Part shown: positions 1,716 through 26,611 of the stretch, one piece after another
Layout: each line of letters begins with the position of its first letter
Numbering within the stretch: the first letter of the stretch is position 1
Source: Candidatus Woesebacteria bacterium GW2011_GWB1_39_12
GTDB taxonomy: Bacteria; Patescibacteriota; Microgenomatia; UBA8517
Assembly (NCBI GenBank): GCA_000993405.1
Contig: LBWB01000012.1
Span: 37,777 to 101,776, forward strand
Direction of reading: 5' to 3'
DNA length: 64,000 nucleotides
Program-made: the position numbers and the translations under genes
Notes under the pieces: model-generated
What the model was told of the DNA's origin: nothing
Seen by the model: the letters and a program-made list of their open reading frames with translations, nothing else
The model's database searches: none

Positions 1716-1716
1716 T

Positions 1717-12194: not shown

Positions 12195-13114
12195 GCGAGA
12201 AGATATATGTTAGTAAAATTACGCAAGACACAAAGAACAGCGTTAAAGATTGTCTTTTGAGTTTATTTTACCGAAAGAACGATTTGATTCAATTTTTAAA
12301 AAGTTGCGGTTCCACATCTTCTGATTTGATTAATATAGGAGAATTAATGACAAAGTCCCGAATTGTTGACACTTATTTTGGCAACCTCGAACAGAGGTTA
12401 GACAATGGAACAGCTCAGTATCATAGTTTGATGAGACAAATTATTGATTGGGACGATTTTGACTCTTATTGGTTTCGGAATGGCAGTCTAGATGCAGGTT
12501 ATGCAAAAAGTAGGATTGGGCAATTGAACAAGCTTTTAGGTAAGAAAACAAAAATAGAAGAGGAGAGACTGAAATTACGCGAGAAAGAACAAGAATACGA
12601 AAAAATAAAAGCTAGGTCTCAGCTAATAACTGATTTAAGAGATAAATTTTATCGAATGTGTCAGGATAGCGATCAGACGCAAAAACGAGGTTACGAGTTA
12701 GAAGATTTACTAAATAAAATGTTTAGTTTTTTCGGCTTTGACGTTTTCAAACCATTTAAACTAAAAGGGGAGCAAATAGATGGTTCCTTTAAACACGATG
12801 GAGATAACTATATATTTGAGTCGAAATGGCAGGATAAAGAAAGTGCAGTCAATGATCTTTATGCTTTTGCTTACAAAATAGAGAGCAATTCTTTGTATCC
12901 TAGGGGTGTGTTTTTTTCTATAAATGGATACTCTGAAGATGCATTAAATAGAATAACTTACAACAAAAAGGCTCAACTAATTTTATTTGATGCCGTCGAT
13001 ATAATCGCCGTTCTCGAGGAACGTATATCATTAGTTAGTCTTCTGGAAGAAAAAATTAGATTTGCACAAACACATTCAAGAATCTATGTTAATGCAAATG
13101 ATATTCTTAAATGA
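12191..13114 (+). CDS. Mrr-like restriction endonuclease-fold (PD-(D/E)xK) protein with an N-terminal domain of unknown function
   Basis: The C-terminal region FGFDVF...GEQIDGSF...IFESKWQDK...SINGYSEDA matches the Mrr_cat D...(D/E)xK pattern. It is translationally coupled to the HTH gene. Confidence 0.55.
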   Translation: MSEKIYVSKITQDTKNSVKDCLLSLFYRKNDLIQFLKSCGSTSSDLINIGELMTKSRIVDTYFGNLEQRLDNGTAQYHSLMRQIIDWDDFDSYWFRNGSLDAGYAKSRIGQLNKLLGKKTKIEEERLKLREKEQEYEKIKARSQLITDLRDKFYRMCQDSDQTQKRGYELEDLLNKMFSFFGFDVFKPFKLKGEQIDGSFKHDGDNYIFESKWQDKESAVNDLYAFAYKIESNSLYPRGVFFSINGYSEDALNRITYNKKAQLILFDAVDIIAVLEERISLVSLLEEKIRFAQTHSRIYVNANDILK

Positions 13115-13230
13115 AAACTAATTGGATGATAAAAATTGAGAAATTTATAAATTAATGACATCTCCCGGGCGGGATGAATTGACGCCTCGGGATTTTTCTT
13201 TCCTCCTTCATCAAGACTTCGAAGGACAAG

Positions 13231-13244
13231 CAAATTTGACCCCA
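13231..13244 (+). repeat. cassette-boundary motif copy a (CAAATTTGACCCCA, short form)
   Basis: First member of an 18-copy motif family. It lies 117 nt after the Mrr-like gene stop. Confidence 0.8.
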
Positions 13245-13322
13245 CTCTTTTGGTGTCTCGTATTTAGTATTTAGGAATAATTTGCGTTGACAGTGAGTCT
13301 TTCATATAGTTTAATAGGGATT

Positions 13323-13610
13323 ATGGACGACGTTAAGAAAATGTTTAGAGTAATTGTTAACGGGCAGAGTGTAATAAAGCAAGAGTTGCTTTCGGAAATT
13401 AAGAAAGTAGACAAGAGCTTGAGCGGCAGAATTGATAGTTTAACTACAGAAATGAAAGACGGGTTTAAGAAAGTAAACAAACGTTTAGATTTAATAGGGA
13501 AATCAGTCGCCTTTCTTGAGGATGATACACCGACTAGAGAAGAACATGATAAATTAGAAAAACGCGTTTCTAAAGTAGAAAGAAAACTTCAAATTCAAGC
13601 ACCTGTTTAA
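13323..13610 (+). CDS. small coiled-coil protein, paralog copy 1 (96 aa from MDDVKKMF)
   Basis: ~90% identical to the ORF at 20532..20819, and the upstream 90 nt are also conserved. Confidence 0.55.
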   Translation: MDDVKKMFRVIVNGQSVIKQELLSEIKKVDKSLSGRIDSLTTEMKDGFKKVNKRLDLIGKSVAFLEDDTPTREEHDKLEKRVSKVERKLQIQAPV

Positions 13611-13616
13611 ATATTT

Positions 13617-13634
13617 TCTCCAAACTTGACCCCA
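13617..13634 (+). repeat. motif copy b (TCTCCAAACTTGACCCCA, short form)
   Basis: Starts 7 nt after the preceding stop codon. Confidence 0.8.
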
Positions 13635-13665
13635 TCTTTTTCTATTTTAAAATATATAATTAGTT

Positions 13666-14088
13666 ATGGTTAAGATTAGGAATTATAAAATTAGTGATTA
13701 CACGAAAGTCAAAGAAATTTTAGAAGAAGCCAGTCTTTTTGATGGAGTTTGGGATTCGGAAGAAAATTTATCAGGTAAGATTAAAGCCAATCCTGAATCA
13801 ATACTTGTTGCGGTAAAAGATGGTGTAATTGTTGGAAATGTATGTATCATTAATTACGGGTCAAAACTTCAATATCTTTTCCGTTTGGCTGTAGATAAAG
13901 ATTATCGTAATCAGGGAATAGCAACACAGTTAATTAATTCTGCAGTTGATATTGCAAGAAAAAATGGGGTAAATGAAGTGGGTTTATATGCTGATGCAGA
14001 CAATTCTAAATTGTTAGCCTATTACAGCAAAAGAGGCTTTAAAAAATCTAAGAGCAGATATTATTATATGTGGCAGGATATTAAATAA
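13666..14088 (+). CDS. GNAT family N-acetyltransferase
   Basis: Acetyl-CoA-binding motif RNQGIATQLI (R/Q-x-x-G-x-A/G) and a ~140-aa GNAT fold length. Confidence 0.75.
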   Translation: MVKIRNYKISDYTKVKEILEEASLFDGVWDSEENLSGKIKANPESILVAVKDGVIVGNVCIINYGSKLQYLFRLAVDKDYRNQGIATQLINSAVDIARKNGVNEVGLYADADNSKLLAYYSKRGFKKSKSRYYYMWQDIK

Positions 14089-14092
14089 GAAT

Positions 14093-14160
14093 CTCCAAAT
14101 CCTTCGATAAATTATAACAGTGAGTGTAGTCGAACTGCTCAGGACTATAGTTTGACCCCA
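14093..14160 (+). repeat. motif copy c, long form (CTCCAAAT-CCTTCGATAAATTATAACAGTGAGTGTAGTCGAACTGCTCAGGACTATAG-TTTGACCCCA)
   Basis: 68 nt, starting 5 nt after the GNAT stop. The palindrome halves are separated by a ~48-nt insert. Confidence 0.8.
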
Positions 14161-14236
14161 CGGTTATTTTTTTGTATCAAACTGCGGTTTCTTGACTTTG
14201 TTACTTTTGAACCTCAATATTAGATTAAGGTTAAAT

Positions 14237-14509
14237 ATGATAATAGATGATCCTAACTTTGATATTCCACTTTGGTTTTTTTATCTAATAGCTTTTATAA
14301 AAATAGCATATCTACTTTTTATAGTTTGGGTTATTTTTAACTTATTTTTGATGATTTATTGGTTAATTAGGTCGATAAAAGATAAAAGTGTTATAAAGAT
14401 AGTCAAGAAAAGGGTTAAGTATGTTTTTTTTGGAATGGCTGCTCTTTTAATTCTCTCTTTGGTAGCTTACGTTTTAGGGTTAGTCCCCAATATTAGAGAT
14501 ATTGTGTAG
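14237..14509 (+). CDS. small membrane protein (2-3 TM helices), hypothetical
   Basis: Hydrophobic 90-105-aa ORF. The start is ambiguous (ATG 14192 or 14237). Confidence 0.4.
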   Translation: MIIDDPNFDIPLWFFYLIAFIKIAYLLFIVWVIFNLFLMIYWLIRSIKDKSVIKIVKKRVKYVFFGMAALLILSLVAYVLGLVPNIRDIV

Positions 14510-14576
14510 TTCGTAGCACTTGTATATTAAAGAAAATTAAACAACATAGGGTTGGACTGAAATGTCTCAGGAAAGG

Positions 14577-14590
14577 CAAATTTGACCCCA
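14577..14590 (+). repeat. motif copy d (CAAATTTGACCCCA)
   Basis: Short form. It begins a ~300-bp segment that is duplicated at 18126..18440. Confidence 0.8.
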
Positions 14591-14673
14591 CAATTTTTTA
14601 GAGCGTTTTTTTCTACAGACTCCGCAACCCCTGTTTTGTTGACAAGCCCTGAAATAAGTTTTAAAGTTTTACC

Positions 14674-14871
14674 ATGAACGACGAAAGGGTAAGAGAGCAC
14701 CGCATCCCTCAAAACACAATTGTTGATAGGGGAGGGTATATCGGCCCAGGAGGCAGAATCAACGCCGAGCTTGTGCGGCCACCTGTTGCAGCATCGCCCA
14801 CAACAGAGATTCCACCCGCAGTTTCCCCGCAATCAACTGGAACCGAAAACCCACCACCTACAACGTATTAG
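14674..14871 (+). CDS. small Pro-rich protein, paralog copy 1 (65 aa, MNDERVREHRIP...)
   Basis: Paralog at 18221..18445 differs by an in-frame 27-nt indel and a few substitutions. The frame is conserved on the + strand, and TTGACA...TTAAAG lies upstream. Confidence 0.5.
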   Translation: MNDERVREHRIPQNTIVDRGGYIGPGGRINAELVRPPVAASPTTEIPPAVSPQSTGTENPPPTTY

Positions 14872-14883
14872 TAGTAATATTTT

Positions 14884-14951
14884 CTTCAAATCCTTCGGCA
14901 TGTTATAACAGTGAGCGTTGTCGAACTGCTCAGGACTATAGTTTGACCCCA
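14884..14951 (+). repeat. motif copy e, long form (CTTCAAAT-CCTTCGGCATGTTATAACAGTGAGCGTTGTCGAACTGCTCAGGACTATAG-TTTGACCCCA)
   Basis: 68 nt, starting 13 nt after the stop of the previous ORF. Confidence 0.8.
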
Positions 14952-14974
14952 AATTATTGATAAGAAAGTAGTGC

Positions 14975-15418
14975 ATGTTCTATACTGGTAGTGTGAAGTA
15001 TTTTAAAAACTTCTTTTTATTTTTTTTGCTAACTTTTTTAATTGCTCCGTTTCCGGAATGTATAGATGGATCCTATAGGGGGGTTAATAAATTTAAATGT
15101 TATACCGGTTTATCATTTTTACCTCCTCTAATAAATATAACTTCGATTATGAGCTTTTCATTTCTTTTTTGGTATAAATCTGATCGGGTCGTTTATAACT
15201 ATTGGCTTTGGCAAAATTTCCAGTCTTTTGTCACTTTTATTATTCTTCCCGTTTTAATGTCAGTTTTTTATACAAAATTTGTTGAAAAGTTTGATGCTAA
15301 AAAGAGAGTAATGTATATGATTTTTATTTTGATATTATTCCTGACGGTAAATACTTTAGTCTTTTATTTATTGAAGTACTATAAAATATTGCCGGCTTCG
15401 CTTTTAATTGCCGATTAG
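14975..15418 (+). CDS. hypothetical membrane protein (4 TM)
   Basis: 147 aa and hydrophobic, with no recognisable motifs. Confidence 0.45.
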   Translation: MFYTGSVKYFKNFFLFFLLTFLIAPFPECIDGSYRGVNKFKCYTGLSFLPPLINITSIMSFSFLFWYKSDRVVYNYWLWQNFQSFVTFIILPVLMSVFYTKFVEKFDAKKRVMYMIFILILFLTVNTLVFYLLKYYKILPASLLIAD

Positions 15419-15488
15419 TTTTAAGATAATTATTAATTAATAAATTGCGCCTTAGAAGTGAAATAAGTTTACACCTTGATATATCCTT

Positions 15489-15625
15489 CCAATTTGACCC
15501 CATAATCCATTCGGCTTCGCTCAGGACTATAGTCCATTCGACAAGTTATAACAGTGAGCGTTGTCGAACTGCTCAGGACATAGTCCTTCGGTTTTACTCA
15601 GAATCATAATTCTTCGATTTTTGTT
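15489..15625 (+). repeat. motif copy f, composite (short core CCAATTTGACCCCA plus ATAATCCATTCGGCTTCGCTCAGGAC, plus the GTTATAACAGTGAGCGTTGTCGAACTGCTCAGGAC insert segment at 15545..15579, plus a tail shared with 18471..18551)
   Basis: Sub-repeats are shared with copies g, h and j. Confidence 0.75.
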
Positions 15626-15644
15626 TGGGTTTGAGATATAATTA

Positions 15645-16328
15645 TTGCAAATGTATAAACTATCTCCTTCCGACTTTAAGTATTTGTATGAGGACTGTAA
15701 GCATTGCTATTACCAAAAAGTTCGGGGGGTAATTAAAGAGCTCCCCTCGATTGGTATGCCGGGGGTATTTACGAAGATGAATACTCTTTTGCAAAACACA
15801 ATTATCGGCATGGATTTACGGGAAATTAATTCCAAACTTCCCGCAGGTAAAATCGAGGTTAAAGAAGGTTTTTTGAAATCCAAAACAATTCCTCCAACCA
15901 ACGATTGCTTTATAGGAGGAAGATTTGATATTGCCTCACGCCTTGACGACGGAACTTATTCAGTCATAGATTTTAAAATTACTGATCCTACAGAAGACAA
16001 AATCCAAAAGTTCTTTCCGCAATTGCATGCTTACAAATTTGCCCTGGAAAATCCGGCGTTTGGTGAGGCGAAAAAGGTGAGCAAAATGGGAGTTATCGCA
16101 ATTAATCCTGAAGAGATATCTTTTCCTGGCGAGAAAGTAGTCTTTACGGCAAAGCCCCTATTGTTTGAGATCGAGGAAGACATGGATAGGTTTTTTGCAT
16201 TTATTTCTGAAGTATCTAAATTGGTGAATGGACCTGAACCGCCGGAAAACTCTGACAATTGCAAATGGTGTTATTATCGACTTTGTACGACAAAGGTTAA
16301 AGATAACCAAGAAGACATTCCTTTTTAA
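15645..16328 (+). CDS. Cas4-like / RecB-family PD-(D/E)xK nuclease with an Fe-S Cys cluster (standalone, no CRISPR locus)
   Basis: N-terminal SPSDFKYLYEDCKHCYY (Cas4-like YxxC motif), core GGRFDI...SVIDFKI (D...DxK), and C-terminal CKWCYYRLC (CxxCx4C). Confidence 0.6.
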   Translation: MQMYKLSPSDFKYLYEDCKHCYYQKVRGVIKELPSIGMPGVFTKMNTLLQNTIIGMDLREINSKLPAGKIEVKEGFLKSKTIPPTNDCFIGGRFDIASRLDDGTYSVIDFKITDPTEDKIQKFFPQLHAYKFALENPAFGEAKKVSKMGVIAINPEEISFPGEKVVFTAKPLLFEIEEDMDRFFAFISEVSKLVNGPEPPENSDNCKWCYYRLCTTKVKDNQEDIPF

Positions 16329-16337
16329 TAACTCTTT

Positions 16338-16393
16338 AAATTTGATCTCATAATCCATTCGGCTTCGCTCAGGACTTCGCAAATTTGACTACA
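16338..16393 (+). repeat. motif copy g, degenerate (TAAATTTGATCTCATAATCCATTCGGCTTCGCTCAGGAC ... GCAAATTTGACTACA)
   Basis: Starts 10 nt after the Cas4-like stop and shares a 27-nt block with copy f. Confidence 0.7.
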
Positions 16394-16423
16394 GAGTTAT
16401 TCGAAATTATACTAGCCCATATT

Positions 16424-17356
16424 ATGAGTGAGAGAGGAAAAGATAAAAAAATTGTAAATGCCAGAAGTACAATCGCGCATCTTGGAAGAAAAGAGCATCT
16501 TACATCCAAAGAAGAAGATAGATTAGATAAAGCTAAAAAAATTACAAGACGACAATTTTTTAAACGGGCCGGAGTTTTAACCGGTGGTGCAGCTCTAACC
16601 GTAATTGGCGGTGGTGCAGCTTATAAAATTGTAGAAAATTTGACAAAGAGTGAAAGTGATGAAGAGGTTGTTACCGGATATGAGAAGGCATTAAATTCTG
16701 TTGTCGAAGGCGATTCAGAGGGAGAAAAATTACTTGATTTTTACAGAGACAGGAAGCGGGACGCCCATATAGAGGGCGATGTTATTTATGCTGATGAAGA
16801 AGGGGACTTAGATAGTAACTTCTGGGTGGTGGTGGATAGAGGTGGAGAATTTAAATCAAATAGAGTTACGGGAATTTCAGAATATAGCCAAGATAATAAT
16901 TTATTGAGAGTTAGATCCTTTGAATCAACTGATGACTTCAAGGGAACCTTGCTCGCACATGAACTGAAACACGCTTATGACGATATTATGCAGATAGAAG
17001 GTCCGGATGAGAATTCATTTTACCGTTCTGAAGCAGAGGCATATGATTTTGAATTTCGATTATTAGATAATGTTTCGGGGAAGCGTTTTATAGGTGTACT
17101 TCAGGAACAGTCACGGTCTATTGAACCGGGAAAGTTTAGGGGTAGATTGTCAGATGAAAATTTTATTTCCTTGAATGATTTATTTCTTGACGCTGTAAGC
17201 AAAGAAGAATTAAATCATAGAGTAGTAGTGTATACAATCGCACTAAATTTTGCCGCCATCGGATTAAGATCTGATATCGCCGATGTTGCACAACAAAAAG
17301 CGGAATATATTCGTGCGATTTATTCTCAAGATATCCCAATATTACCCCTTGATTAA
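16424..17356 (+). CDS. Tat-signal secreted HExxH metallopeptidase-like protein
   Basis: Twin-arginine motif TRRQFFKRAG followed by a hydrophobic h-region, and HELKH (HExxH). The ATG at 16424 is preferred over the TTG at 16385. Confidence 0.5.
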   Translation: MSERGKDKKIVNARSTIAHLGRKEHLTSKEEDRLDKAKKITRRQFFKRAGVLTGGAALTVIGGGAAYKIVENLTKSESDEEVVTGYEKALNSVVEGDSEGEKLLDFYRDRKRDAHIEGDVIYADEEGDLDSNFWVVVDRGGEFKSNRVTGISEYSQDNNLLRVRSFESTDDFKGTLLAHELKHAYDDIMQIEGPDENSFYRSEAEAYDFEFRLLDNVSGKRFIGVLQEQSRSIEPGKFRGRLSDENFISLNDLFLDAVSKEELNHRVVVYTIALNFAAIGLRSDIADVAQQKAEYIRAIYSQDIPILPLD

Positions 17357-17448
17357 CAATTTAATGCCATTTTGAAAGGAACTTGACTTAATGTGGCATT
17401 CTTATGTCACCTTCAAAGTATGATACAAGTAAGTAAATCAGGATTTTT

Positions 17449-17506
17449 CTCCAAATTCGACACTTAGACGTGACTAAGTGCAAGCCCATAATCCATTCGA
17501 CAAGCT
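17449..17506 (+). repeat. motif copy h, degenerate (CTCCAAATTCGACA ... CCCATAATCCATTCGACAAGCT)
   Basis: Lies in the convergent gap between the metallopeptidase gene and the minus-strand HD gene. Confidence 0.6.
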
Positions 17507-17517
17507 CCGAAATATTT

Positions 17518-18075
17518 TTAAATTTTCTTTGCTCTTTTCAAATCTCTTTTCTCAAGTTCCTTAAATATCTTGCTGCCGTTTTTGGATTTAAAAACAGGTT
17601 TATAATTTTCAAAAAAAGTATCCAAAACTTTTGTATCTTGTGTTTCTTCTTCAAATACTTCTCCCTGAAGTAAGGTTTCAAGCTTATCGGCTTCCCTCGC
17701 AATTTGGGATTCTTTAGTCTTCATAGAATTAAATTCATTGAATAAATTCATATATTCTTTTTTAATTACGGAAGGTAGTTCGTTGAAAACAGTCCTTTTT
17801 GCTTTCTCTTCCATTAATCGCTTCTTGTCATAATTACCGGAGGGGGGAATAACGTCATCCATTTTTGCCATCACCCAATCGTGAACTAATAATATCTTGA
17901 CTACTTTCTCTGAATTTACCTTCTCAAGTTTTGCCAAGTAGAGACCAATGCACATTGCCCCAAAAATGTGAGAGGCCAGATCATCCGAATCCATTCCTTT
18001 GTAAATCCAACCCTGGCGCTTGGTCTTCTTTAAAACTGAAATGATTGAGTACAAGTCCTTTATAGTTTTCATCAT
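17518..18075 (-). CDS. HD-domain phosphohydrolase (YfbR-like 5'-deoxynucleotidase family)
   Basis: H...HD...D pattern: SHIFGAMCIG, LLVHDWVMAKMDD, READKLETLLQ. Confidence 0.6.
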   Translation of the reverse strand: MMKTIKDLYSIISVLKKTKRQGWIYKGMDSDDLASHIFGAMCIGLYLAKLEKVNSEKVVKILLVHDWVMAKMDDVIPPSGNYDKKRLMEEKAKRTVFNELPSVIKKEYMNLFNEFNSMKTKESQIAREADKLETLLQGEVFEEETQDTKVLDTFFENYKPVFKSKNGSKIFKELEKRDLKRAKKI

Positions 18076-18120
18076 ACAATTTTAGCACTTGTAGATTCAT
18101 TTTTCGATAAACTCCAGTTT

Positions 18121-18139
18121 CTTCAAATTTGACCCTGCA
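18121..18139 (+). repeat. motif copy i (CTTCAAATTTGACCCTGCA)
   Basis: Start of the duplicated segment (copy 2). Confidence 0.8.
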
Positions 18140-18220
18140 ATTTTTTAGAGCGTTTTTTTCTACAAACTCCGCAACCCCTGTTTTGTTGACAAGCCCTGAA
18201 ATAAGTTTTAAAGTTTTACA

Positions 18221-18445
18221 ATGAACGACGAAAGGGTAGGAGAGCACCGCATTCCTAAAAACACAATTGTTGATAGGGGAGGGTATATCGGCGCAGGAGG
18301 CAGAATCAACGCCGAGCTTGTGCGACCACCCGAAGTCGTTCCTCCTATAAATCCGCCTGTCGCAGCATCGCTCACAACAGAGACGCCACCCGCTGTTCCC
18401 CCGCAACTATCTGGAAACGAAAACCCACCACTCACAACGTATTAG
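18221..18445 (+). CDS. small Pro-rich protein, paralog copy 2 (74 aa)
   Basis: See 14674..14871. A 9-aa insertion (EVVPPINPP) preserves the frame. Confidence 0.5.
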   Translation: MNDERVGEHRIPKNTIVDRGGYIGAGGRINAELVRPPEVVPPINPPVAASLTTETPPAVPPQLSGNENPPLTTY

Positions 18446-18457
18446 TAGTAATATTTT

Positions 18458-18551
18458 CTTCAAATCCTTCGGCAAGTTATAACAGTGAGCGTTGTCGAAC
18501 TGCTCAGGACTATAGTCCTTCGGTTTTACTCAGGATCACGATTCTTCGACT
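18458..18551 (+). repeat. motif copy j, long form variant (CTTCAAAT-CCTTCGGCAAGTTATAACAGTGAGCGTTGTCGAACTGCTCAGGACTATAG-TCCTTCGG...), with a tail shared with copy f
   Basis: Starts 13 nt after the stop. It is ~95% identical to 15545..15625 and lacks the terminal TTTGACCCCA. Confidence 0.75.
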
Positions 18552-18583
18552 TTTATTTATTGAAGCAGTATAATCGCCATAGA

Positions 18584-18976
18584 ATGTTGGAATCAAAATC
18601 GTCCATAAATCAGGGACTGGCAGAAATATATAAAGAGGCATGTCAAAACCTTGGTAGGTATTTAGACGGTTTGAATCATGGTGTTGCAAGGTCGTATAAA
18701 GGACGTATGAGGCAAGAAACGGTACGACAAGAGGTTGAAGAGTACGGGCAGGAATCTCTTTACCATACTTTCGAAACACCGTACGTTCAGGGATATGGTT
18801 TGGTTGTCTCGACTTTAAATATTTTAGAAAGGTTAAATGTTCATACAAATACCGATCTTTTAGGATTAGATATAGAGAACGCCGAAAAGCAAAACAGAGA
18901 CTTTGGCGATAAAAAAGTAGAATTGGTTGGCCTTTTCAAAGAAATAGTCAGAGCACAAAAAGACTTAGAAGAGTAG
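18584..18976 (+). CDS. hypothetical protein (130 aa from MLESKSS)
   Basis: ATG at 18584 with TATAAT 9 nt upstream. The ORF-track GTG start at 18485 lies inside the repeat and is rejected. Confidence 0.45.
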   Translation: MLESKSSINQGLAEIYKEACQNLGRYLDGLNHGVARSYKGRMRQETVRQEVEEYGQESLYHTFETPYVQGYGLVVSTLNILERLNVHTNTDLLGLDIENAEKQNRDFGDKKVELVGLFKEIVRAQKDLEE

Positions 18977-18982
18977 TATTAT

Positions 18983-18999
18983 CTCCAAATTTGACCCCA
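18983..18999 (+). repeat. motif copy k (CTCCAAATTTGACCCCA)
   Basis: Starts 7 nt after the stop. Confidence 0.85.
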
Positions 19000-19065
19000 C
19001 ATTATTAGTATTAAATATTGAGTATATCGTAGTTATGGAATGTTGTGGGTGATATACTTTAGCCT

Positions 19066-19632
19066 ATGAAGAGGGCAATAATTGTTCACTGTTGGGAAGG
19101 GTATCCTAAGTATTGTTGGTATCCTCAAACTAAAAAGGAGTTAGAAGAGGAAGGTTTTGAAGTAGAAGTTCCAGAGATGCCTGAAACTGCAAATCCTAAA
19201 CTTTCTGGGTGGCTTTCCAAGCTTAAAGATATAGTTCAAACTCCTGATAAAAATCTCTTTTTAGTCGGGCACAGTTTAGGCTGTATAACCATAATGAGAT
19301 ATTTGGAAAGCTTAAAAGAGGGCAAGAAAGTGGGAGGAGTAGTTTTTGTGGCGGGATTTACGGATGATTTGGGTTATAAGGAACTCACAAACTTTTTCAC
19401 TGAAACGATTGATTTTGAAAAGATTAGAGAAAAATCTGATAGTTTTTATGCAATAAATTCCGATGACGACCCATACGTTTCTCTTAAATACGCTGATATT
19501 TTGAAAGAAAAACTCGGAGCGATATCGATAATAAAGCATAATATGAAGCATTTCTCAGGACCAATAGACAATGAAGACAGCTGTCTTTCTATTCCGGAAG
19601 TTACAAAGTCCATCATAAAGATGGCGAGGTGA
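19066..19632 (+). CDS. RBBP9/YdeN-like alpha/beta serine hydrolase
   Basis: ~190 aa with IIVHCWEG at the N-terminus and the nucleophile elbow GHSLG. Confidence 0.7.
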   Translation: MKRAIIVHCWEGYPKYCWYPQTKKELEEEGFEVEVPEMPETANPKLSGWLSKLKDIVQTPDKNLFLVGHSLGCITIMRYLESLKEGKKVGGVVFVAGFTDDLGYKELTNFFTETIDFEKIREKSDSFYAINSDDDPYVSLKYADILKEKLGAISIIKHNMKHFSGPIDNEDSCLSIPEVTKSIIKMAR

Positions 19633-19634
19633 TT

Positions 19635-19651
19635 CTTCAAATTTGACCCCA
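19635..19651 (+). repeat. motif copy l (CTTCAAATTTGACCCCA)
   Basis: Starts 3 nt after the stop. Confidence 0.85.
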
Positions 19652-19696
19652 TATTGCTTCACCAGAATAAGGCGATTATAGCTCAACTGGATGAGT

Positions 19697-19930
19697 TTAT
19701 ACTATTGGTCGATGGGGTAACCTGGCACGAGTGGCTCTCGATACGGCATTGGGGTTAGTTGCATTACCAACTGCACCTATAACTTCATCTACACTGAAAG
19801 GTTCGGGAGTTAAGGCTTGAATTACATCTAACTTGGCTAGCTCTGCGGAATCTCTCGGGTCTTCCGGTTGAACGTGTTGGTATCTTTGGATTACTTCTCT
19901 TGTAAGAGGAGCTTCAATTCTTAAAGTCAT
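19697..19930 (-). CDS. hypothetical 77-aa protein (minus strand, locally higher GC)
   Basis: The ORF sits in a GC-richer patch. It is the only minus-strand ORF in this gap and has no motifs. Confidence 0.3.
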   Translation of the reverse strand: MTLRIEAPLTREVIQRYQHVQPEDPRDSAELAKLDVIQALTPEPFSVDEVIGAVGNATNPNAVSRATRARLPHRPIV

Positions 19931-19966
19931 TAGTTGTTCGTATTATAAGGATAGAATTAAGATTTT

Positions 19967-19981
19967 GCAAATTTGACCCCC
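19967..19981 (+). repeat. motif copy m (GCAAATTTGACCCCC)
   Basis: Short form. Confidence 0.8.
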
Positions 19982-20036
19982 GACCGTAGAAATTAAACGA
20001 TAGTTTCGTTTGAATATTCTATGTTAAGATTAACTA

Positions 20037-20402
20037 ATGAAACGCAGATTGCCGTATATTATTATTTTTATTTTATTTATAGCAATTTTAATTTTTCTGT
20101 ATTTTTTATTTAGTATGAATTATGTTCCTAAGAATAAGGAACTGAAATTTACGAATTCTCCACTTAATTATTGTTCGTCCAATTTTGATTGTTATATTTA
20201 CAGTTATGATTCATGCCAGTGTCCGACCAGTGTTGTTGTGAATAAGAAATATAAAGATTCCCCTGAGCTGTATAATAATTTTCCTATTACTCCCTCCGAA
20301 GAATGTCTTATTGCTTGTACTCCTGGAAGCTCTTTTCCCAAAAATGCTTATTGTGTTAATGGTAAGTGCGGTATTGAATACGAGAAATTGTTTGAAAAAT
20401 GA
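20037..20402 (+). CDS. small secreted Cys-rich protein (hypothetical)
   Basis: N-terminal signal/TM helix and 10 Cys in the mature part. Confidence 0.5.
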   Translation: MKRRLPYIIIFILFIAILIFLYFLFSMNYVPKNKELKFTNSPLNYCSSNFDCYIYSYDSCQCPTSVVVNKKYKDSPELYNNFPITPSEECLIACTPGSSFPKNAYCVNGKCGIEYEKLFEK

Positions 20403-20444
20403 CTTAAGATTTGTAACAATTGAGATTATTCATCCGTGAAATAT

Positions 20445-20461
20445 CCTTCAAATTTGACCCT
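20445..20461 (+). repeat. motif copy n (CCTTCAAATTTGACCCT)
   Basis: Begins the duplicated coiled-coil cassette (20445..20822, similar to 13231..13613). Confidence 0.8.
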
Positions 20462-20531
20462 ACTTTTGGTATCTAGTATTTAGGAATAATTTGCGTTGAC
20501 GGTGAGTCTTTCATATAGTTTAATAGGGATT

Positions 20532-20819
20532 ATGGACGACGTTAAGAAAATGTTTAGAGTAATTGTTAACGGGCAGAGTGCAATAAAGCAAGAGTTGCTT
20601 TCGGAAATTAAGAAAGTAGACAAGAGCTTGAGCGGCAGAATTGATAGTTTAACTACAGAAATGAAAGAAGGGTTTAAGAAAGTAAACAAACATCTTGATA
20701 TGATTGGAAAGAGTGTTGCTTTTCTTGAAGACGACACACCGACCTGGGAGGAACATGATGAATTAGAAAAGCGGGTTACTAAAGTTGAGAAAAAACTTCA
20801 GATTCAAGCACATATTTAA
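20532..20819 (+). CDS. small coiled-coil protein, paralog copy 2
   Basis: See 13323..13610. Confidence 0.55.
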   Translation: MDDVKKMFRVIVNGQSAIKQELLSEIKKVDKSLSGRIDSLTTEMKEGFKKVNKHLDMIGKSVAFLEDDTPTWEEHDELEKRVTKVEKKLQIQAHI

Positions 20820-20826
20820 ATATGCT

Positions 20827-20869
20827 CTCCAAATCCTTCAGTATTATTCAGGACTGTAGTTTGACCACA
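20827..20869 (+). repeat. motif copy o, intermediate form (CTCCAAAT-CCTTCAGTATTATTCAGGACTGTAG-TTTGACCACA)
   Basis: Starts 8 nt after the stop and has a shortened insert. Confidence 0.7.
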
Positions 20870-20928
20870 AAACCCCCAGCCGTTTCTTTCACGCGCCCTA
20901 TTATGAGAGTTGTTGAAACTATTGGTGA

Positions 20929-21226
20929 AGTTATTTAATCGCGTCTCGAACCGCCTCCTCCTCTGTTGTCGTTTCCGCCCGAAGATCTCTCTTCTCGCGG
21001 TCTTGCTTCGTTAACAACTATTTTTCTTCCGCCAAGCTCCGTACCGTTTAACTCTTTTATTGCTTTATCTGCATTTGCATCGTCTGCAAACTCAACAAAA
21101 GCAAACCCCTTTCCTTGATTCGTAAACTTGTCGGTAATAACGTCAGCCGTAGTAACTTCTCCTATTTTCGAAAAAAGTTCCAGAAGCCCGTGAAACCTAT
21201 ACCTGAAGTATCGATTTAGTGCCTAT
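20929..21226 (-). pseudogene. RRM-type (RNP-1/RNP-2) RNA-binding protein gene, apparently 5'-truncated with no in-frame start
   Basis: The minus-strand translation ...GLLELFSKIGEVTTADVITDKFTNQGKGFAFVEFADDANADKAIKELNGTELGGRKIVVNEARPREERSSGGNDNRGGGGSRRD* contains RNP-1 (KGFAFVEF). The RNP-2 region is garbled, and no ATG/GTG/TTG precedes the in-frame stop. Confidence 0.5.
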
Positions 21227-21360
21227 CAGAATGGATTCGTAACCTTAAGCTGTATTATATCTTAATTGGTTCCATAATTCCTAATAATCGGTTGTAGTAG
21301 AAATTTAACCCCACATAAAATGCTTCATTCTTCCTAAAGTTTTTTTAAGCCGATTTCCAG

Positions 21361-21374
21361 CAAATTTGACATTA
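21361..21374 (+). repeat. motif copy p, degenerate (CAAATTTGACATTA)
   Basis: Short form with the CCCCA tail lost. Confidence 0.6.
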
Positions 21375-21420
21375 GTTGATTTATTTCTATATAATGACTT
21401 TTTATATAAAAGTTTCAGTT

Positions 21421-22164
21421 ATGAAAGGTAAATTAGTTTTATTAACATCTCTCCTTACTTCATTTATTCTTCTTTTTTATGTCGCAACCGGTGTTAGGGC
21501 TGAAAATCCAAAAGAACAAGTTGGTCGCGGACCATTAACCAAGATTACCTTTATTCATTACAAGAAAGCGTTTGCCAAACCGCCTTGGGCAGGCGGGAAC
21601 AACACAACAGCGGTAAAGTGTTACGGTTTTTTGGCAAGAGGTGCAAAATGGAAAATCCAGGAGCCGTATTATGTAAACCCAACAGACTCCGGTCTAAGTT
21701 CCTCATTTGTCGAGAATGCAGTTACCACTGGAGTTGGTGAATGGGAGAATTATGCAGGAAACGTGTTCGGAAACGGAAACGTTGATGCGAGCGCAAGCTA
21801 TAACGAGGGCAATCTCGATGGAGTAAATACGGCTTCGTTCGGTTCATATCCTGATAACGCTGTCATTGCCGTAACCAACGTTTGGGGATATTTCGGCGGT
21901 CCACCTCAAACCAGAGAATTGGTCGAATGGGATATGCTTTTTAACAACTCTTCGGAATGGACCTGGGGAGATGGACTAGGTGATCCGACACTGATGGACG
22001 TACAAAATATTGCTACTCATGAACTCGGACATAGTTTCGGCATGGCCGATCTTTATGATACGTCGTGTAACTTGGAAACAATGTATGGTTACTCAACCGA
22101 AGGCGAGACTTCAAAACGGGATTTAAATTCTGGTGATATTCAAGGAATCCAAGAGTTATACTAA
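21421..22164 (+). CDS. secreted metzincin-like zinc metalloprotease
   Basis: Signal peptide, HELGHSFGMAD (HExxHxxGxxD), and a Met-turn candidate (ETMYGYS). Confidence 0.65.
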   Translation: MKGKLVLLTSLLTSFILLFYVATGVRAENPKEQVGRGPLTKITFIHYKKAFAKPPWAGGNNTTAVKCYGFLARGAKWKIQEPYYVNPTDSGLSSSFVENAVTTGVGEWENYAGNVFGNGNVDASASYNEGNLDGVNTASFGSYPDNAVIAVTNVWGYFGGPPQTRELVEWDMLFNNSSEWTWGDGLGDPTLMDVQNIATHELGHSFGMADLYDTSCNLETMYGYSTEGETSKRDLNSGDIQGIQELY

Positions 22165-22210
22165 AGAACTTCTACAAATTTCACTCCAAGGAAAAATTAA
22201 TAGTTAATTA

Positions 22211-22477
22211 TCATATACAAGTTGGAACTTTATCTCCCGGCAAAGTTAAGCAGATGAAGTAACAATTAGCCAGACAAGCGCCTCGAGGACACCCCAGTTC
22301 TGCCCCTTTTATACATATGGGATATTTGTTTTTGCAACTCGTTCGACACAAGTTTTTTCTTACTAATAAAATAGTTGTTACTAAAAAAGTTAATAAGGTA
22401 AGGATAAATATTATAATTAAAAAAATTTTATATATCTTCACAACCTTAATATTAGAAGCGATAGAGAATAAATTCAA
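22211..22477 (-). CDS. small Cys-rich membrane protein (hypothetical)
   Basis: 88 aa, with an N-terminal TM helix and 9 Cys. Confidence 0.3.
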   Translation of the reverse strand: MNLFSIASNIKVVKIYKIFLIIIFILTLLTFLVTTILLVRKNLCRTSCKNKYPICIKGAELGCPRGACLANCYFICLTLPGDKVPTCI

Positions 22478-22481
22478 CTTT

Positions 22482-22498
22482 CTTCAAAATTGACCCCG
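22482..22498 (+). repeat. motif copy q (CTTCAAAATTGACCCCG)
   Basis: Short form, upstream of BrnT. Confidence 0.8.
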
Positions 22499-22526
22499 TT
22501 GTTTGATATGGCAAAAGGTATGGTAA

Positions 22527-22826
22527 TATGGTAATATCCTTACAGATACGACTTTTGAGTGGGATGAGGATAAAAATACTAAGAATCTGAAGAAGCATGG
22601 TGTCGACTTTGAAACTGCCCAATACGCTTTTCTAGACGAAAGACGTGTAATTGCAAAAGATTTAGCACATAGTAAAGAAGAAGAACGGTATTATTGTTTC
22701 GGTAAAGTAAAAGGAGGTGTAATAACTGTCCGGTTTACCTATCGAGATAATCGTATCCGGATAATCGGAGCAGATTATTGGAGAAGGGGCAGAAAAATAT
22801 ATGAAAAAGAAAATAAAATATTCTAA
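22527..22826 (+). CDS. brnT: BrnT-like toxin (DUF497 ribonuclease fold); the ORF lacks a canonical in-frame start codon
   Basis: Translation TTFEWDEDKNTKNLKKHGVDFETAQYAFLDERRVIAKDLAHSKEEERYYCFGKVKGGVITVRFTYRDNRIRIIGADYWRR... matches the BrnT family. It overlaps brnA by 26 nt. An 8-bp tandem duplication, TGGTAATATGGTAATA, lies at the 5' end. Confidence 0.55.
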   Translation, partial: YGNILTDTTFEWDEDKNTKNLKKHGVDFETAQYAFLDERRVIAKDLAHSKEEERYYCFGKVKGGVITVRFTYRDNRIRIIGADYWRRGRKIYEKENKIF

Positions 22827-23028
22827 CGAGCCTGTTGAGGCAAAGGTAATCGATGATTTTCTACCCAGCCCGGAAGAGTTGGTTTTAAAAGAAAAGAAAA
22901 CCAAAATAACGCTTACTCTTACAGAAAAAAGTCTCAAATTCTTTAAAGACAGTGCCAAGAAACAGGGAGCATCTTATCAAGCAATGATCAGAAGACTAAT
23001 TGATTATTACGTAGCAAATCAAATTTAA
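22801..23028 (+). CDS. brnA: BrnA-like antitoxin (RHH/CopG-like)
   Basis: DDFLPSPEEL...KITLTLTEKSLKFFKDSAKKQGASYQAMIRRLIDYY matches the BrnA pattern. It is downstream of and overlapping BrnT. Confidence 0.65.
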   Translation: MKKKIKYSNEPVEAKVIDDFLPSPEELVLKEKKTKITLTLTEKSLKFFKDSAKKQGASYQAMIRRLIDYYVANQI

Positions 23029-23055
23029 AACACTTCTATCTGGGCATTTTTCTTT

Positions 23056-23082
23056 CCTTCAAAGTGCACAAATCTGACCCCA
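23056..23082 (+). repeat. motif copy r (CCTTCAAAGTGCACAAATCTGACCCCA)
   Basis: Last copy. It starts ~27 nt after the brnA stop. Confidence 0.7.
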
Positions 23083-23645: not shown

Positions 23646-26611
23646 ATGGCAAAAACAAAGCCCTTTTTCGAACCTCTTTCCCCGAATGTAGATTTTCCAA
23701 AATTGGAGGAAGAGCTTCTCAAGAAATGGAATAAAGAGGGGACTGTCAAAAGGTATCTTCAAAAGAACGAGAATTCTAAGAAAAACTTTTCCTTCTTGGA
23801 CGGTCCTATTACCGCAAATAATCCCATGGGAGTACATCATGCATGGGGGCGTACTTATAAGGACCTTTGGCAGAGGTTTTACAATATGCGCGGGTTCAAA
23901 CAAAGGTTCCAGAATGGCTTTGACTGTCAGGGACTTTGGGTTGAGGTTGAGGTTGAAAAAGAGCTCGGTTTAAAAAGTAAAAAAGATATTGAAAATTTAG
24001 TTCCGGGTGACGTTAAGGCAAGTATCGCCAAATTTGTAGAACTTTGTAGACAAAGAGTTTATAAATACGCAAAAATACAGACGGAACAATCCAAACGATT
24101 AGGGTATTTCATGGATTGGGATAATTCCTACTTCACCCTTTCTGAAGAGAATAACTATATGATTTGGCACTTTTTGAAAAAATGTAATGACCGCGGACTT
24201 ATTTATAAGGGACGCGATTCTGTTCCATGGTGTCCCCGCTGCGGGACCGCAATTTCTCAACACGAGATTCTGACGGAAGATTATAGAGAGCTAACACACG
24301 AGACTGTCTTTTTTAAGGTTCCGGTTAAAGACCGCGACTTTAGTTTATTGGCATGGACGACAACACCCTGGACAATTCCGGCGAATGTTGCTCTGGCAAT
24401 AAACCCTAAGTTTAAATATCGGGTTTGGAAACTTAATAATAAAGATACGATTTTAACGGTTAACCCCGATGAAATTGCTGACGCGGAATCTCGCGAGTGG
24501 TTTAATAAAAATGTTGTTGAAGCGGGATTCGTGCACGAAAAAGGTACTGAAGACATTCTTGGCAAAGATCTGGTAGGCCTCAAATATGAGGGCCCTTTTG
24601 ACGATTTACCAAGAGTTAAAGATGCTCTCAATAAAAATCCTGATACATTCCACTCTGTCATTGATGCGGAAGATTTGGTTGTTGCAACGAAAGGAACAGG
24701 AATCTTGCATGTAGCCCCTGGCGCCGGAGAAGAAGATTATAAATTGGGAAAAGAGAAAAATTTATCGGTAATTGATGTAATTAATGAAGAAGCCAATTAT
24801 TACGATCAATTAGGAGAATTTAGCGGGAAAAATGCTAAAAGGCATCCCGAGATTATAATCGATTTTCTTAAAAGTAAGGATGAAGGCAGGTTTCTTTTAA
24901 AAACAGCGAATATTACACACAGATATCCCGCTTGTTGGCGCTGTAAAACCGAGCTTGTTTGGAGAGTTGTTGATGAATGGTATATCGCTATTGACCCAGT
25001 TCGTGAAGATATGAAGAAAGTTACAAAGAGAATTCGCTGGATACCCGGTTTTGGTCTTAAAAGAGAGTTAGATTGGCTAAAGAATATGCATGATTGGCTG
25101 ATTAGTAAGAAAAGATATTGGGGTCTTGCTATACCGATCTGGGAATGCAAAAAATGCGGCAATTTTGAAGTTATTGGTAGCTATGAAGAGCTGAAGGAAA
25201 AAGCGGTTGACGGCTGGGAAAAATTTGAGGGCCATACTCCGCATAAGCCGTGGGTTGACGAAGTGAGAATTAAATGTTCTAAGTGCGGTGAGATTACTGA
25301 AAGGATACCGGATGTCGGGAACCCCTGGCTTGATGCCGGGATTGTCTCTTTTTCAACAATCTCGAAAGACAATAAAAGTGATCCTTTATATTGGTCGGAT
25401 AAGGAGGAATGGCAAAAGTGGTTTCCGGCCGATTTTATAACCGAAAGCTTTCCGGGACAATTTAAAAACTGGTTTTATTCTTTAATCGCAATGAGCGCTG
25501 TTTTAGAAAATAGGGAACCATTTAAAACCGTTAAGACGGCAGGCCTATGCATAAAAGTTGGGGAAACGCGATCGAATTTAATGAGGGCGCCGAGAAAATA
25601 GGTGTTGACGTTATGCGCTGGATGTACGTTCGCCAAAATCCTTCTGATAATCTGTTATTTGGTTACAAAATTGCGGACGAGACCAGGAGGAAATTCCATT
25701 TAACTCTTTGGAATATCTATAACTTCTTCGTGACTTATGCAAATCTCGATGATTGGCATCCTGTAGCAGGTCAACCGATTATTCTAAGAAATTTGCTTGA
25801 TGTGTGGGTTACCTCACGTTTGCAGGAAACACTCCTTGGGGTAACGAAATCTCTCGAAGATTATGACGCAAGATCGGCAAGCCAATTTATTGAGGACTTT
25901 GTGCAAGATATGTCTCTTTGGTATATAAGACGCTCAAGAAATCGTGTGGGATTAAGCGCACCGGATGCGACCGATAAAAAAGATTTTTACATTGTTTGTC
26001 ATTTTGTTTTAGTAAACCTGACTAAAATCTTAGCGCCCTTTACTCCTTTTTTGGCGGACATAATATTTACAAATCTCGTAAAGCTAGGGACTATATCAGT
26101 TCACCTGATTGACTGGCCGGACGCAAAATTTGTAAAGAATTTACAAGGATTACTCGGAGAAAAAAAGGAAGTGAAAAAGTTAATGAAATATATGCATTTG
26201 GTTAGAAGTGTCGTAGAAAAAGGTCATTCGGCCAGGAAAGAAGCAAGGTTGCCTGTTAGACAACCGCTAGCCTCGATAACAATCTACTTTGATGAGAGAT
26301 GTGATGCAAGGATGCTAAAGTTAATTGAAGATGAACTGAACGTTAAAGAGGTGATTTGGAAAAAAGGGAAGGAATTAAAAATAAAACTAGATACTAAGAT
26401 TACTCCGGAACTTGAAGAAGAGGCAAAGACAAGAGAATTAATTCGGAAAATTCAAGGTACAAGAAAAGAAATGGGTATAACCCTTACTCAAAAAGTTACT
26501 GTTTTAAGTCCCTGGCTTCCTCTGAATAAAGATCTTATTCAAAGAGTGAAGGATATTACGTTAACAAGGGACATTGGTAAAGGAGATTTTGAAGTTAAAG
26601 TTAGCAATTAA
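23646..26611 (+). CDS. ileS: isoleucyl-tRNA synthetase-like class I aaRS, split by a +1/-1 frameshift around 25540-25560
   Basis: N-terminal FLDGPITANNPMGVHHAWGRT (HIGH region variant), GFDCQGLW (like IleRS WDCHGLP), WCPRCGT zinc motif, and KMHKSWGN (KMSKS). KMHKSWGN is in the second ORF, directly after the frame break. Confidence 0.6.

Follow-up and report, generated by a model that had tools for sequence, protein, structure and literature searches.

The window analysed here is a 64,000-nucleotide (64-kb) piece of the chromosome of an uncultured member of Candidatus Woesebacteria, a lineage of the Candidate Phyla Radiation (CPR; Patescibacteria), from groundwater of the Rifle aquifer. Its proteins are named Woesebacteria GW2011_GWB1_39_12 in public records, and the same sequence is present in many ENA and JGI assemblies of PRJNA268031 and related samples. 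Between positions 13226 and 23081, on the plus strand, it carries an array of about 18 modules, each consisting of a single gene or a toxin-antitoxin (TA) pair, which are delimited by 19 junctions formed by copies of one short motif. The array is placed with the dcw cell-division cluster on one side and housekeeping genes on the other: the upstream side has murD...murG-ftsA-ftsZ, followed by genes for YkuD and NYN proteins and for a restriction-modification (RM) enzyme, Eco57I-like and accompanied by two small partners; on the downstream side come a cupin gene, ileS, ftsW, rplU and parB. A preliminary description of this stretch, made from its letters alone, had seen in it an integron-like array of gene cassettes, each ending in a conserved palindromic site, with no recombinase in view.

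The junction consensus, TTCTYCAAATTTGACCCC, is 18 nt long, as defined by a logo of 70 copies from six loci (the window and five related loci, representing five distinct arrays). Across these copies 12 positions are conserved at 84% or more, and the flanks hold no information in the logo except weakly at +12 to +21, where a tract is T-rich. When the degenerate and split copies are included, we count 21 copies at the 19 junctions (13226-23081), all on the plus strand, which bears out the earlier report of 18 copies in one orientation between 13.2 and 23.1 kb. This amounts to 21 copies in 9.9 kb as against none in the remaining 54 kb on both strands. The 17-mer by which the motif had originally been recognized gives 12 matches at up to three mismatches (0.55 expected), all on the plus strand between 13228 and 22498, and the 8-mer TTGACCCC is found ten times, again only on the plus strand, within 13236-22497 and nowhere else in the 64 kb on either strand. 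The site is conserved, as had been stated, but palindromic only in CAAATTTG (8 bp, extended to 10 bp in TCAAATTTGA variants). Its outer parts, TTCTYC and ACCCC, are not complementary to each other in the logo, and with the palindrome restricted to this central part the whole site is asymmetric. The right half of the site contains a consensus -35 hexamer (TTGACC). The left part, TTCTYC, is present where a plus-strand open reading frame (ORF) ends just ahead of the site; otherwise the site reads nnnnGCAAATTTGAC (the 'GCAAAT' or GC type). The left half (TTCTYC) travels with the upstream module. A split form is observed at four junctions, where TTCTYCAAAT and TTTGACCCC are parted by a 25- or 50-nt insert; these inserts have conserved ends (CCTTYG...CAGGACTRTAG), and at one of the four the right half is wholly replaced.

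Of the 15 window junctions behind a plus-strand ORF, nine start 0-10 nt past its stop codon and the other six 35-113 nt past it, while the remaining four come behind a minus-strand gene or ORF, next to its 5' end; over all arrays about 40% of the junctions sit 0-10 nt after a stop codon. The preliminary description therefore overstated the case in placing most copies directly after a stop, though the preference for the stop side over the start side is a real asymmetry: the next start always lies at least about 21 nt beyond the motif, the median distance being about 90 nt. In the four annotated arrays, the motif is found on the plus strand in 37 of 47 co-directional, 7 of 9 convergent and 9 of 11 divergent intergenic regions, and an inverted (minus-strand) copy in none of the 68 intergenic regions. 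The element marks the boundaries of modules, with its polarity fixed to that of the array.

According to the genes called on the public contigs, one gene or the BrnT/BrnA pair occupies every interval from one junction to the next, with modules spanning 0.3-1.1 kb; the genes are on the plus strand unless stated otherwise. Junction 1 (13226-13243, GC-type ACAAGCAAATTTGACCCC) stands behind a terminator-like hairpin that follows a gene for a 307-aa restriction-endonuclease-like protein, and the 60 nt at this junction (13186-13245) are 90% identical to positions 11028-11087 of L015, a related contig discussed below. It is followed by the first copy of a gene for a 95-aa coiled-coil protein (13323-13610; the second copy, at 20532-20819, has 92% nucleotide identity). 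Junction 2 (13616-13633, TTCTCCAAACTTGACCCC) lies 5 nt past the stop of this ORF and, like few other copies, doubles as a -35 element (TTGACC-16-TAAAAT); the next gene, for a GNAT acetyltransferase (13666-14088), ends 2 nt ahead of junction 3 (14091-14159), which is split into ATCTCCAAAT, a 50-nt insert and TTTGACCCC, and folds no better than its shuffles. Beyond a 90-aa membrane protein comes junction 4 (14572-14589, GC-type AAAGGCAAATTTGACCCC), the 5' edge of a duplicated module for a 65-aa protein; then junction 5 (14882-14950), split by a 50-nt insert, a 147-aa membrane protein, and junction 6 (15484-15501, TCCTTCCAATTTGACCCC), which is trailed by tandem short repeat modules (15502-15640). 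A Cas4-like PD-(D/E)XK nuclease (15651-16328), with homologues in the arrays L011, L014 and L034, precedes the double junction 7 (16332-16392), where a degenerate copy (16332-16349) is accompanied by a GC-type copy (16375-16392) giving TTGACT-17-TATACT.

The next gene codes for a 310-aa protein and converges upon a minus-strand HD-domain hydrolase gene (17518-18075), which is inverted within its own module; the convergent gap holds junction 8 (17447-17464, TTCTCCAAATTCGACACT), with a degenerate right half. Junction 9 (18119-18136, TTCTTCAAATTTGACCCT), 43 nt from the start of the HD gene, is the 5' edge of the module of a 74-aa protein, the duplicate of the 65-aa one. Junction 10 (18456-18515) consists of a left half (TTCTTCAAAT) and a 50-nt insert, with another repeat module in place of the right half. 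After a 130-aa protein, junction 11 (18981-18998, ATCTCCAAATTTGACCCC) lies 4 nt past a stop, and a perfect copy at junction 12 (19633-19650) directly abuts (0 nt) the stop of a serine hydrolase gene (PF06821; 19066-19632), which is common to L015 (77% nucleotide identity). Junction 12 is followed by a convergent minus-strand gene for a 77-aa protein, so there is no plus-strand gene for it to regulate, and junction 13 (19963-19980, TTTTGCAAATTTGACCCC) comes after the 5' end of this gene. A 121-aa secreted protein leads to junction 14 (20444-20461, TCCTTCAAATTTGACCCT), the 5' edge of the second 95-aa module, and this in turn to junction 15 (20825-20868), which is split by a 25-nt insert and followed by a convergent, minus-strand gene for an RRM protein. 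The double junction 16 (21295-21373) has copies at 21295-21312 and 21356-21373, the second being a perfect TTGACA-18-TATAAT promoter for the gene of a secreted matrixin-like metalloprotease (21394-22164); 5 nt past its stop is the degenerate junction 17 (22170-22187, TTCTACAAATTTCACTCC). Junctions 18 (22480-22497, TTCTTCAAAATTGACCCC) and 19 (23064-23081, GTGCACAAATCTGACCCC) are the 5' and 3' edges of the module for the BrnT/BrnA TA pair (22533-23028), junction 19 being the last site ahead of the cupin and IleRS genes.

The cargo reported earlier is thereby confirmed for the GNAT, BrnT/BrnA, Cas4-like, HD, serine hydrolase and matrixin genes and for the duplicated ORFs; the cupin, also listed as cargo, lies outside the last motif, and the gene fragment noted there is that of the RRM protein. 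Public assemblies of this population, L001 among them, have 100 bp at 21182-21191 that the window lacks, and this gap (~21191) removes the 5' end and promoter of the RRM gene, which is truncated in the window as a result. The window is likewise without 25 bp at 25532/25533 relative to other assemblies of the population, and here ileS is split into ORFs at 23646-25601 and 25547-26611. Both gaps could be assembly variants or real deletions. The BrnT frame (22524-22811) has no ATG, GTG or TTG after the in-frame stop at 22524-22526, while an ATG is present in L015, and the gene is uncalled in the public contigs; hence, BrnA may be an orphan antitoxin in the window.

Many modules have a promoter-like site of their own, 40-60 nt further downstream of the motif. 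The 90-95-aa coiled-coil family has its own conserved promoter (TTGACA-17-TTTAAT) and occurs in at least two copies in most arrays compared and in one copy in L015; it may act as a portable homology anchor. The short repeat modules (TCCWTTCG...CTCAGGACTATAG; TTCTTCGAC...) are found at 14101-14150, 14892-14941, 15502-15640, 16350-16374 and 18466-18560, either as insertions precisely in the middle of the motif or as tandem stacks behind it, and related pieces are seen in L011, L015, L075 and L148. One tandem stack (15482-15630) folds moderately well (z=-2.1, minus strand). These modules may be candidates for elements resembling miniature inverted-repeat transposable elements (MITEs), repetitive extragenic palindromes (REPs) or leaders.

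Shared and duplicated modules cease to be homologous a few bases from the motif at either end. Two dispersed duplications are seen in the window (13231-13617/20449-20826 and 14577-14942/18124-18516), and both begin exactly at CAAATTTGACCC, with unrelated sequence upstream. At the 3' end the similarity between duplicates reaches the left half of the next junction (TTCTYCAAAT), in the second pair also through the common 50-nt insert. The two duplications are in opposite relative order, and a single segmental duplication hence offers no explanation for them. Comparable boundaries are seen across genomes. The BrnT/BrnA module of the window is 90% identical to that of L075 over 584 nt and 82% identical to that of L015, in differing neighbourhoods; against L075 identity drops to 60% in the 60 nt outside either junction (background 56 +/- 4%). 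A module for an 88/77-aa protein in L011 and L015 shows 69% identity inside and 57-58% outside the junctions, and many BLAST segments between arrays start or end at an equal motif offset in both partners. These coincident ends, in the duplicates and across genomes, point to a unit of exchange that runs from TTGACCCC through the ORF to TTCTYCAAAT, adjacent units overlapping in CAAAT/TTG.

Homologues of the 95-aa protein led to the Woesebacteria contigs L011 (39_32-like), L014 (JXA63) and L015 (37_19-like), each with the motif many times over, and exact-pattern scans of genome and metagenome collections added the arrays L034/L057/L138, L075, L095, L146, L148, L150 and L165. In all, at least ten other Woesebacteria-like arrays have the same motif with largely different cargo, and in every one of them it is found in a single orientation, that of the array. 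In a 414-kb contig of Woesebacteria 39_32 the exact 18-mer is confined to the array loci. L015 is from the same chromosomal place as the window (YkuD-208aa-NYN upstream, 88% nucleotide identity), and it has 3 of the ~18 modules in common with it: the serine hydrolase (77%), BrnT/BrnA (82%) and the 95-aa family. ORFs common to different species have 63-82% nucleotide identity. The array is preceded by an RM system, a different one each time, in L011, L015 and L075 as well as in the window. Among contigs of the window's own population, the order is identical in about 24 that carry the cupin gene and unchanged in six that carry the second 95-aa copy. The comparison of related genomes is thus two-sided: it reveals a constant order within the population, extensive unit-wise differences between related species, and no associated recombinase. 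The cassette-array architecture claimed at the outset is upheld: units of one gene or TA pair share one polarity in a hypervariable island to which the site is confined, the site is kept across species as the cargo turns over, and homology breaks at it.

Beyond these arrays, isolated exact matches in other CPR bacteria (Daviesbacteria, Saccharibacteria and others) were considered as single 'attB-like' sites; those that could be placed fall inside ORFs and were dismissed as chance. A scan of viral collections returned only chance single matches and one giant-virus contig with an unrelated longer repeat: in L248 (IMGVR GVMAG-M-3300017963-13; 558-2460, reverse strand) four copies of a ~130-nt repeat hold the same 15-mer, TTCCAAATTTGACCCCCC, in what seems to be an intergenic repeat of viral type, unrelated to the array. 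A tandem pair, CTTCAAATTTGACCCC-N9-GAAATTTGACCCC, present in two genomes of Amycolatopsis spp. (L062 7846-7871; L066 6671-6696), may be an operator and is probably unrelated to the array motif. The L011 array has several decayed copies of a gene for an 89-aa ArsR-like winged helix-turn-helix (wHTH) protein; this gene was considered as the source of a site-binding protein and rejected, being absent from the window.

The explanation we favour, at a confidence close to but below even, is that the asymmetric 18-nt site serves modules of a single gene as their junction or as the place of their recombination, and is acted on by an unlinked enzyme. In its favour are the restriction of the motif to the island, its uniform polarity, its presence irrespective of gene orientation, its retention in at least ten arrays with different cargo, the homology breaks near it and the behaviour of its left half. 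A module comprises TTGACCCC, a 5' leader in which a promoter is often present, a single ORF or TA pair, the stop and TTCTYCAAAT, with adjacent modules overlapping in the core CAAAT/TTG. The enzyme, be it a site-specific recombinase or a similar protein, would have its gene elsewhere in the genome; it would recognize the asymmetric double-stranded site, excise a module along with one site and reinsert it at any other site. Functionally, this process would resemble that of an integron, or the accretion of elements in tandem at an att core. Given that the right half holds a consensus -35 (TTGACC), the site might furnish a promoter for an incoming module if a -10 falls 16-18 nt away; such promoter donation would be a side effect rather than the main role.

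Several points weigh against this proposal. No excision or insertion event was seen, and recombination is something we infer from the sequence comparisons. Furthermore, since the intergenic DNA is short and the motif conserved, homology would end near the motif under any kind of gene-wise shuffling, and the breakpoint evidence is, accordingly, suggestive and not decisive. Presence/absence polymorphism of modules was sought in the ~24 contigs of the population and none was seen; the only strain-level tracts observed, in two variants (L010 1-450; L092 vs L095), are recombination tracts within paralogous 95-aa genes, which break inside the coiled-coil ORF family and not at the motif. In L011 (10408-12041; Woesebacteria 39_32), the gene for the essential GTPase Obg and one for a 156-aa protein, both on the minus strand, are flanked by motif copies inside the array. 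The dyad-symmetric arms are only 8-10 bp long, unlike those of typical core sites of tyrosine or serine recombinases. No Phage_integrase, resolvase or transposase Pfam match was obtained among the window ORFs scanned, the remaining large ORFs at 40.5-62 kb being judged by eye (glycosyltransferases, membrane proteins, GatA/B), in agreement with the earlier statement that no integrase is present in the window. Extension beyond its ends did not change this: a recombinase is absent from the Pfam lists for about 8 kb upstream and 9 kb downstream (~82 kb in total), a XerC/XerD-type recombinase was likewise not found in these ~82 kb, and none was found in or beside the arrays L011, L014, L015, L075, L095, L146 and L148 in the flanks available.

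The presence of a consensus -35 in the motif prompts an alternative, which we regard as unlikely: a shared cis-regulatory element, comprising a UP-like tract with a -35 (TTGACC) or an overlapping operator, which is bound by RNA polymerase or an island-specific regulator and co-ordinates the accessory genes. Nearly all copies contain the -35. A -10 box (at least 5/6) is found at 16-18 nt in 9 of 70 copies (13%) as against a mean of 2.9 (4%) at control offsets, and the earlier assertion that the motif lacks promoter spacing is to this extent incorrect, though it stands for most copies. In L014, 3 of 8 copies pass an automated -10 test and five look like complete promoters by eye, several of its copies starting leaderless or short-leader genes; in the window, the copies at 13626, 16385, 18991 and 21366 score as sigma-70-like. 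Moreover, three of the four window copies without a downstream plus-strand gene have a degenerate right half (17447, 20825-20868, 22170), which hints at selection tied to the downstream gene, and promoter-bearing intergenic repeats are known in viruses, such as the halovirus HF2 (PMC8707807). However, the -10 position has zero information over the 70 copies, 87% of which are without a usable -10; many modules own the more distal promoter mentioned above; the housekeeping promoters of the host combine a strong or extended -10 with a weak -35; and the hexamer is conserved together with 10 nt ahead of it and 2 nt behind it. The occupation of convergent gaps at the same rate, together with the lack of any inversion ahead of minus-strand genes, argues against a promoter or operator. 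The occupied divergent gaps, in turn, argue against a signal in the 3' untranslated region. The two kinds of gap thus speak against the plain terminator or operator, which the preliminary description had kept as its own alternative. A more general boundary element, acting as an RNA 3'-end, processing or stability signal (UUCUYCAAAUUUGACCCC) or as a DNA roadblock or insulator between transcription units, appears to us quite unlikely. It would fit the nine window junctions (and the ~40% over all arrays) at 0-10 nt past a stop codon, the T-rich tract at +12 to +21, the C-rich, G-poor sequence, the agreement of the polarity with the dominant direction of transcription, and the RRM protein and BrnT RNase among the cargo, with an NYN RNase gene flanking the island. 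Yet the motif forms no hairpin and has no self-complementary arm, and none of the five terminator-like sites in 12-24 kb (7.9 in shuffled sequence) coincides with the core motif, those at 15575 and 18506 being in the repeat modules beside junctions 6 and 10. No Rfam family matches it either: an Rfam 15 search at gathering scores finds only four tRNAs in the window, and a permissive search of 13.0-23.4 kb nothing below E=5. The 9 of 11 divergent gaps with the motif, including a near-perfect copy at 18119, have no plus-strand ORF ending in them, and this alternative leaves unexplained the limitation of the motif to one island and the ends of module homology.

We consider it improbable that the motif is a functionless relic, persisting only through descent or gene conversion in an island that grew as a founder unit with the sequence was duplicated again and again, or as copies recombined by homology or microhomology once DNA had been taken up. 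The arrays do contain duplicated modules and remnants of decayed genes, and homologous exchange is ongoing inside the paralogous 95-aa genes. Nevertheless, the 12 positions remain at 84% or more over 70 copies while adjacent non-coding DNA is unconserved, and ORFs common to different species are only 63-82% identical. As the modules contain unrelated genes, descent from one founder would need a precise swap-in of each gene. A length of 18 bp is also below that usual for RecA-dependent exchange. Finally, a canonical integron cassette array of the type without a linked integrase (CALIN), with unusually short attC sites and IntI elsewhere or lost, is highly improbable, and the integron or attC-like identity originally suggested is not sustained. 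In favour of it are the large number of sites, spaced by less than 4 kb and alike in orientation, the single-ORF units, and the cargo of TA and small unknown genes typical of sedentary chromosomal integrons (for the definitions see Cury et al., 2016, PMC4889954; IntegronFinder 2.0, PMC9024848). On the other hand, the sites are 18 bp in length, as against 57-141 bp for attC; the long forms of 44-149 nt, folded as DNA on both strands, have z of -2.1 to +0.9 versus shuffles (-2.8 to -17 kcal/mol), none being significantly better than these; and the R'' RYYYAAC/R' GTTRRRY pair is absent from the consensus, with the long forms reading ...TAGTTTGAC, one mismatch from GTTRRRY and without a RYYYAAC partner. 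Besides, no IntI is found beside any of at least eight arrays, many modules carry promoter-like sites of their own, and it is the 3' site, not the 5' boundary, against which the ORF lies. A literature search found no report of integrons or integron-like arrays in CPR bacteria and no mention of the motif in bacteria.

Carrying the recombination-site proposal a step further, it is possible, and we offer this only tentatively, that a clade of Woesebacteria has a previously undescribed gene-cassette platform, in which single-gene modules are captured, shuffled and lost at the asymmetric double-strand site of 18 bp (TTCTYCAAAT|TTGACCCC) through the action of an unlinked enzyme. Such a platform would be functionally convergent with integrons and unrelated to them in site structure and recombinase linkage. 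Under every one of these explanations, the motif is a junction element, strongly conserved and specific to the lineage, in a hypervariable CPR island, and we found no description of it in the literature. CPR bacteria have tiny genomes with few recognized mobile elements, and little is understood of the routes by which they acquire and trade accessory genes. Here an island of 10-20 kb is almost fully rebuilt between congeners (88% core identity, 3 of ~18 modules common) with a nearly invariant 18-nt junction: this combination points to a dedicated mechanism of module turnover in the lineage. If site-specific recombination is indeed at work, the task of integrons would have been solved a second time, and independently, with a far simpler site of possible use as a tool. 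Being situated beside RM systems and carrying TA pairs, nucleases and HEPN/Gp49-type genes, the arrays may be a store of defence and stress genes, and the motif provides a simple handle for the search for such islands in groundwater metagenomes.

Two further loci of the window are of note. Directly upstream of the array, a gene for a 168-aa MerR/excisionase-type helix-turn-helix (HTH) protein (11688-12194) is followed by that of the 307-aa protein (12191-13114), which has, by eye, a restriction-endonuclease-like C-terminus and for which no family match was found. Homologues of the HTH protein in other CPR contigs precede varied defence effectors (Shedu SduA_C, an nSTAND NTPase), which suggests a modular two-gene defence system. 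The same MerR/HTH_17 gene was considered as the recombinase: its likeness to the IS607 transposase is limited to the N-terminal HTH, and its homologues are found ahead of defence effectors and not beside motif arrays, for which two reasons it was rejected. Its C-terminal domain of ~100 aa has no family assignment. Elsewhere, between an htpX-like gene and gatA, there is an isolated gene (56498-56920, minus strand) whose product is a '23S rRNA intervening sequence protein' (PF05635).

Among known systems, the intergenic repeats of the halovirus HF2 and the early-promoter families of phages are comparable in that a conserved sequence with a promoter element occupies nearly every intergenic gap (PMC8707807). 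In the array, however, only a minority of copies are complete sigma-70-type promoters, there is no conserved -10 and convergent gaps are occupied; the orientation is fixed to the chromosome and not to the neighbouring gene, and the location is chromosomal, between the dcw cluster and ileS.

Tandem accretion in the Streptococcus elements ICESt1/ICESt3 and the related CIMEs leaves direct repeats of the att core in one orientation, and elements without an integrase can be moved in trans. These elements are kilobases long, few in number, usually at the 3' end of a tRNA or conserved gene, and have an integrase in at least one of them. The array shares the one-way direct repeats and differs in its units of 0.3-1.1 kb, about 18 in number with one gene each, and in the lack of an integrase. 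In the pdif (Xer) modules of Acinetobacter plasmids and in the IMEX at dif, short double-strand sites bound small single-gene or TA modules. There XerC/XerD, a housekeeping recombinase, is encoded far away, and repeated integration gives rise to arrays of alternating sites and modules; accordingly, the absence of a recombinase from view is to be expected in systems of this kind. The pdif/dif sites are of 28 bp, with two 11-bp arms and a 6-bp spacer, and alternate in orientation between modules, whereas the array has a dyad of 8-10 bp with mutually unrelated flanks and all its sites are direct. To our knowledge, the array site has no similarity to dif consensus sequences, nor do we know of a convincing match between the motif and any of parS, the DnaA box, IHF, dif, hix or lox sites.

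The closest likeness in overall organization is to chromosomal integrons and CALINs. Shared with these are a chromosomal array of about 18 single-ORF units with a repeated site in one polarity; a cargo of TA pairs, small unknown proteins, acetyltransferases and nucleases; and content that differs between related species around a site that is homogeneous within the lineage. The differences concern the site and its linkage: here an asymmetric 18-bp double-strand site takes the place of one with an imperfect hairpin, R/L boxes and extrahelical bases, there is no adjacent IntI, promoter-like sites belong to many of the modules themselves, the ORF lies close against the 3' site, and the host is a CPR bacterium.

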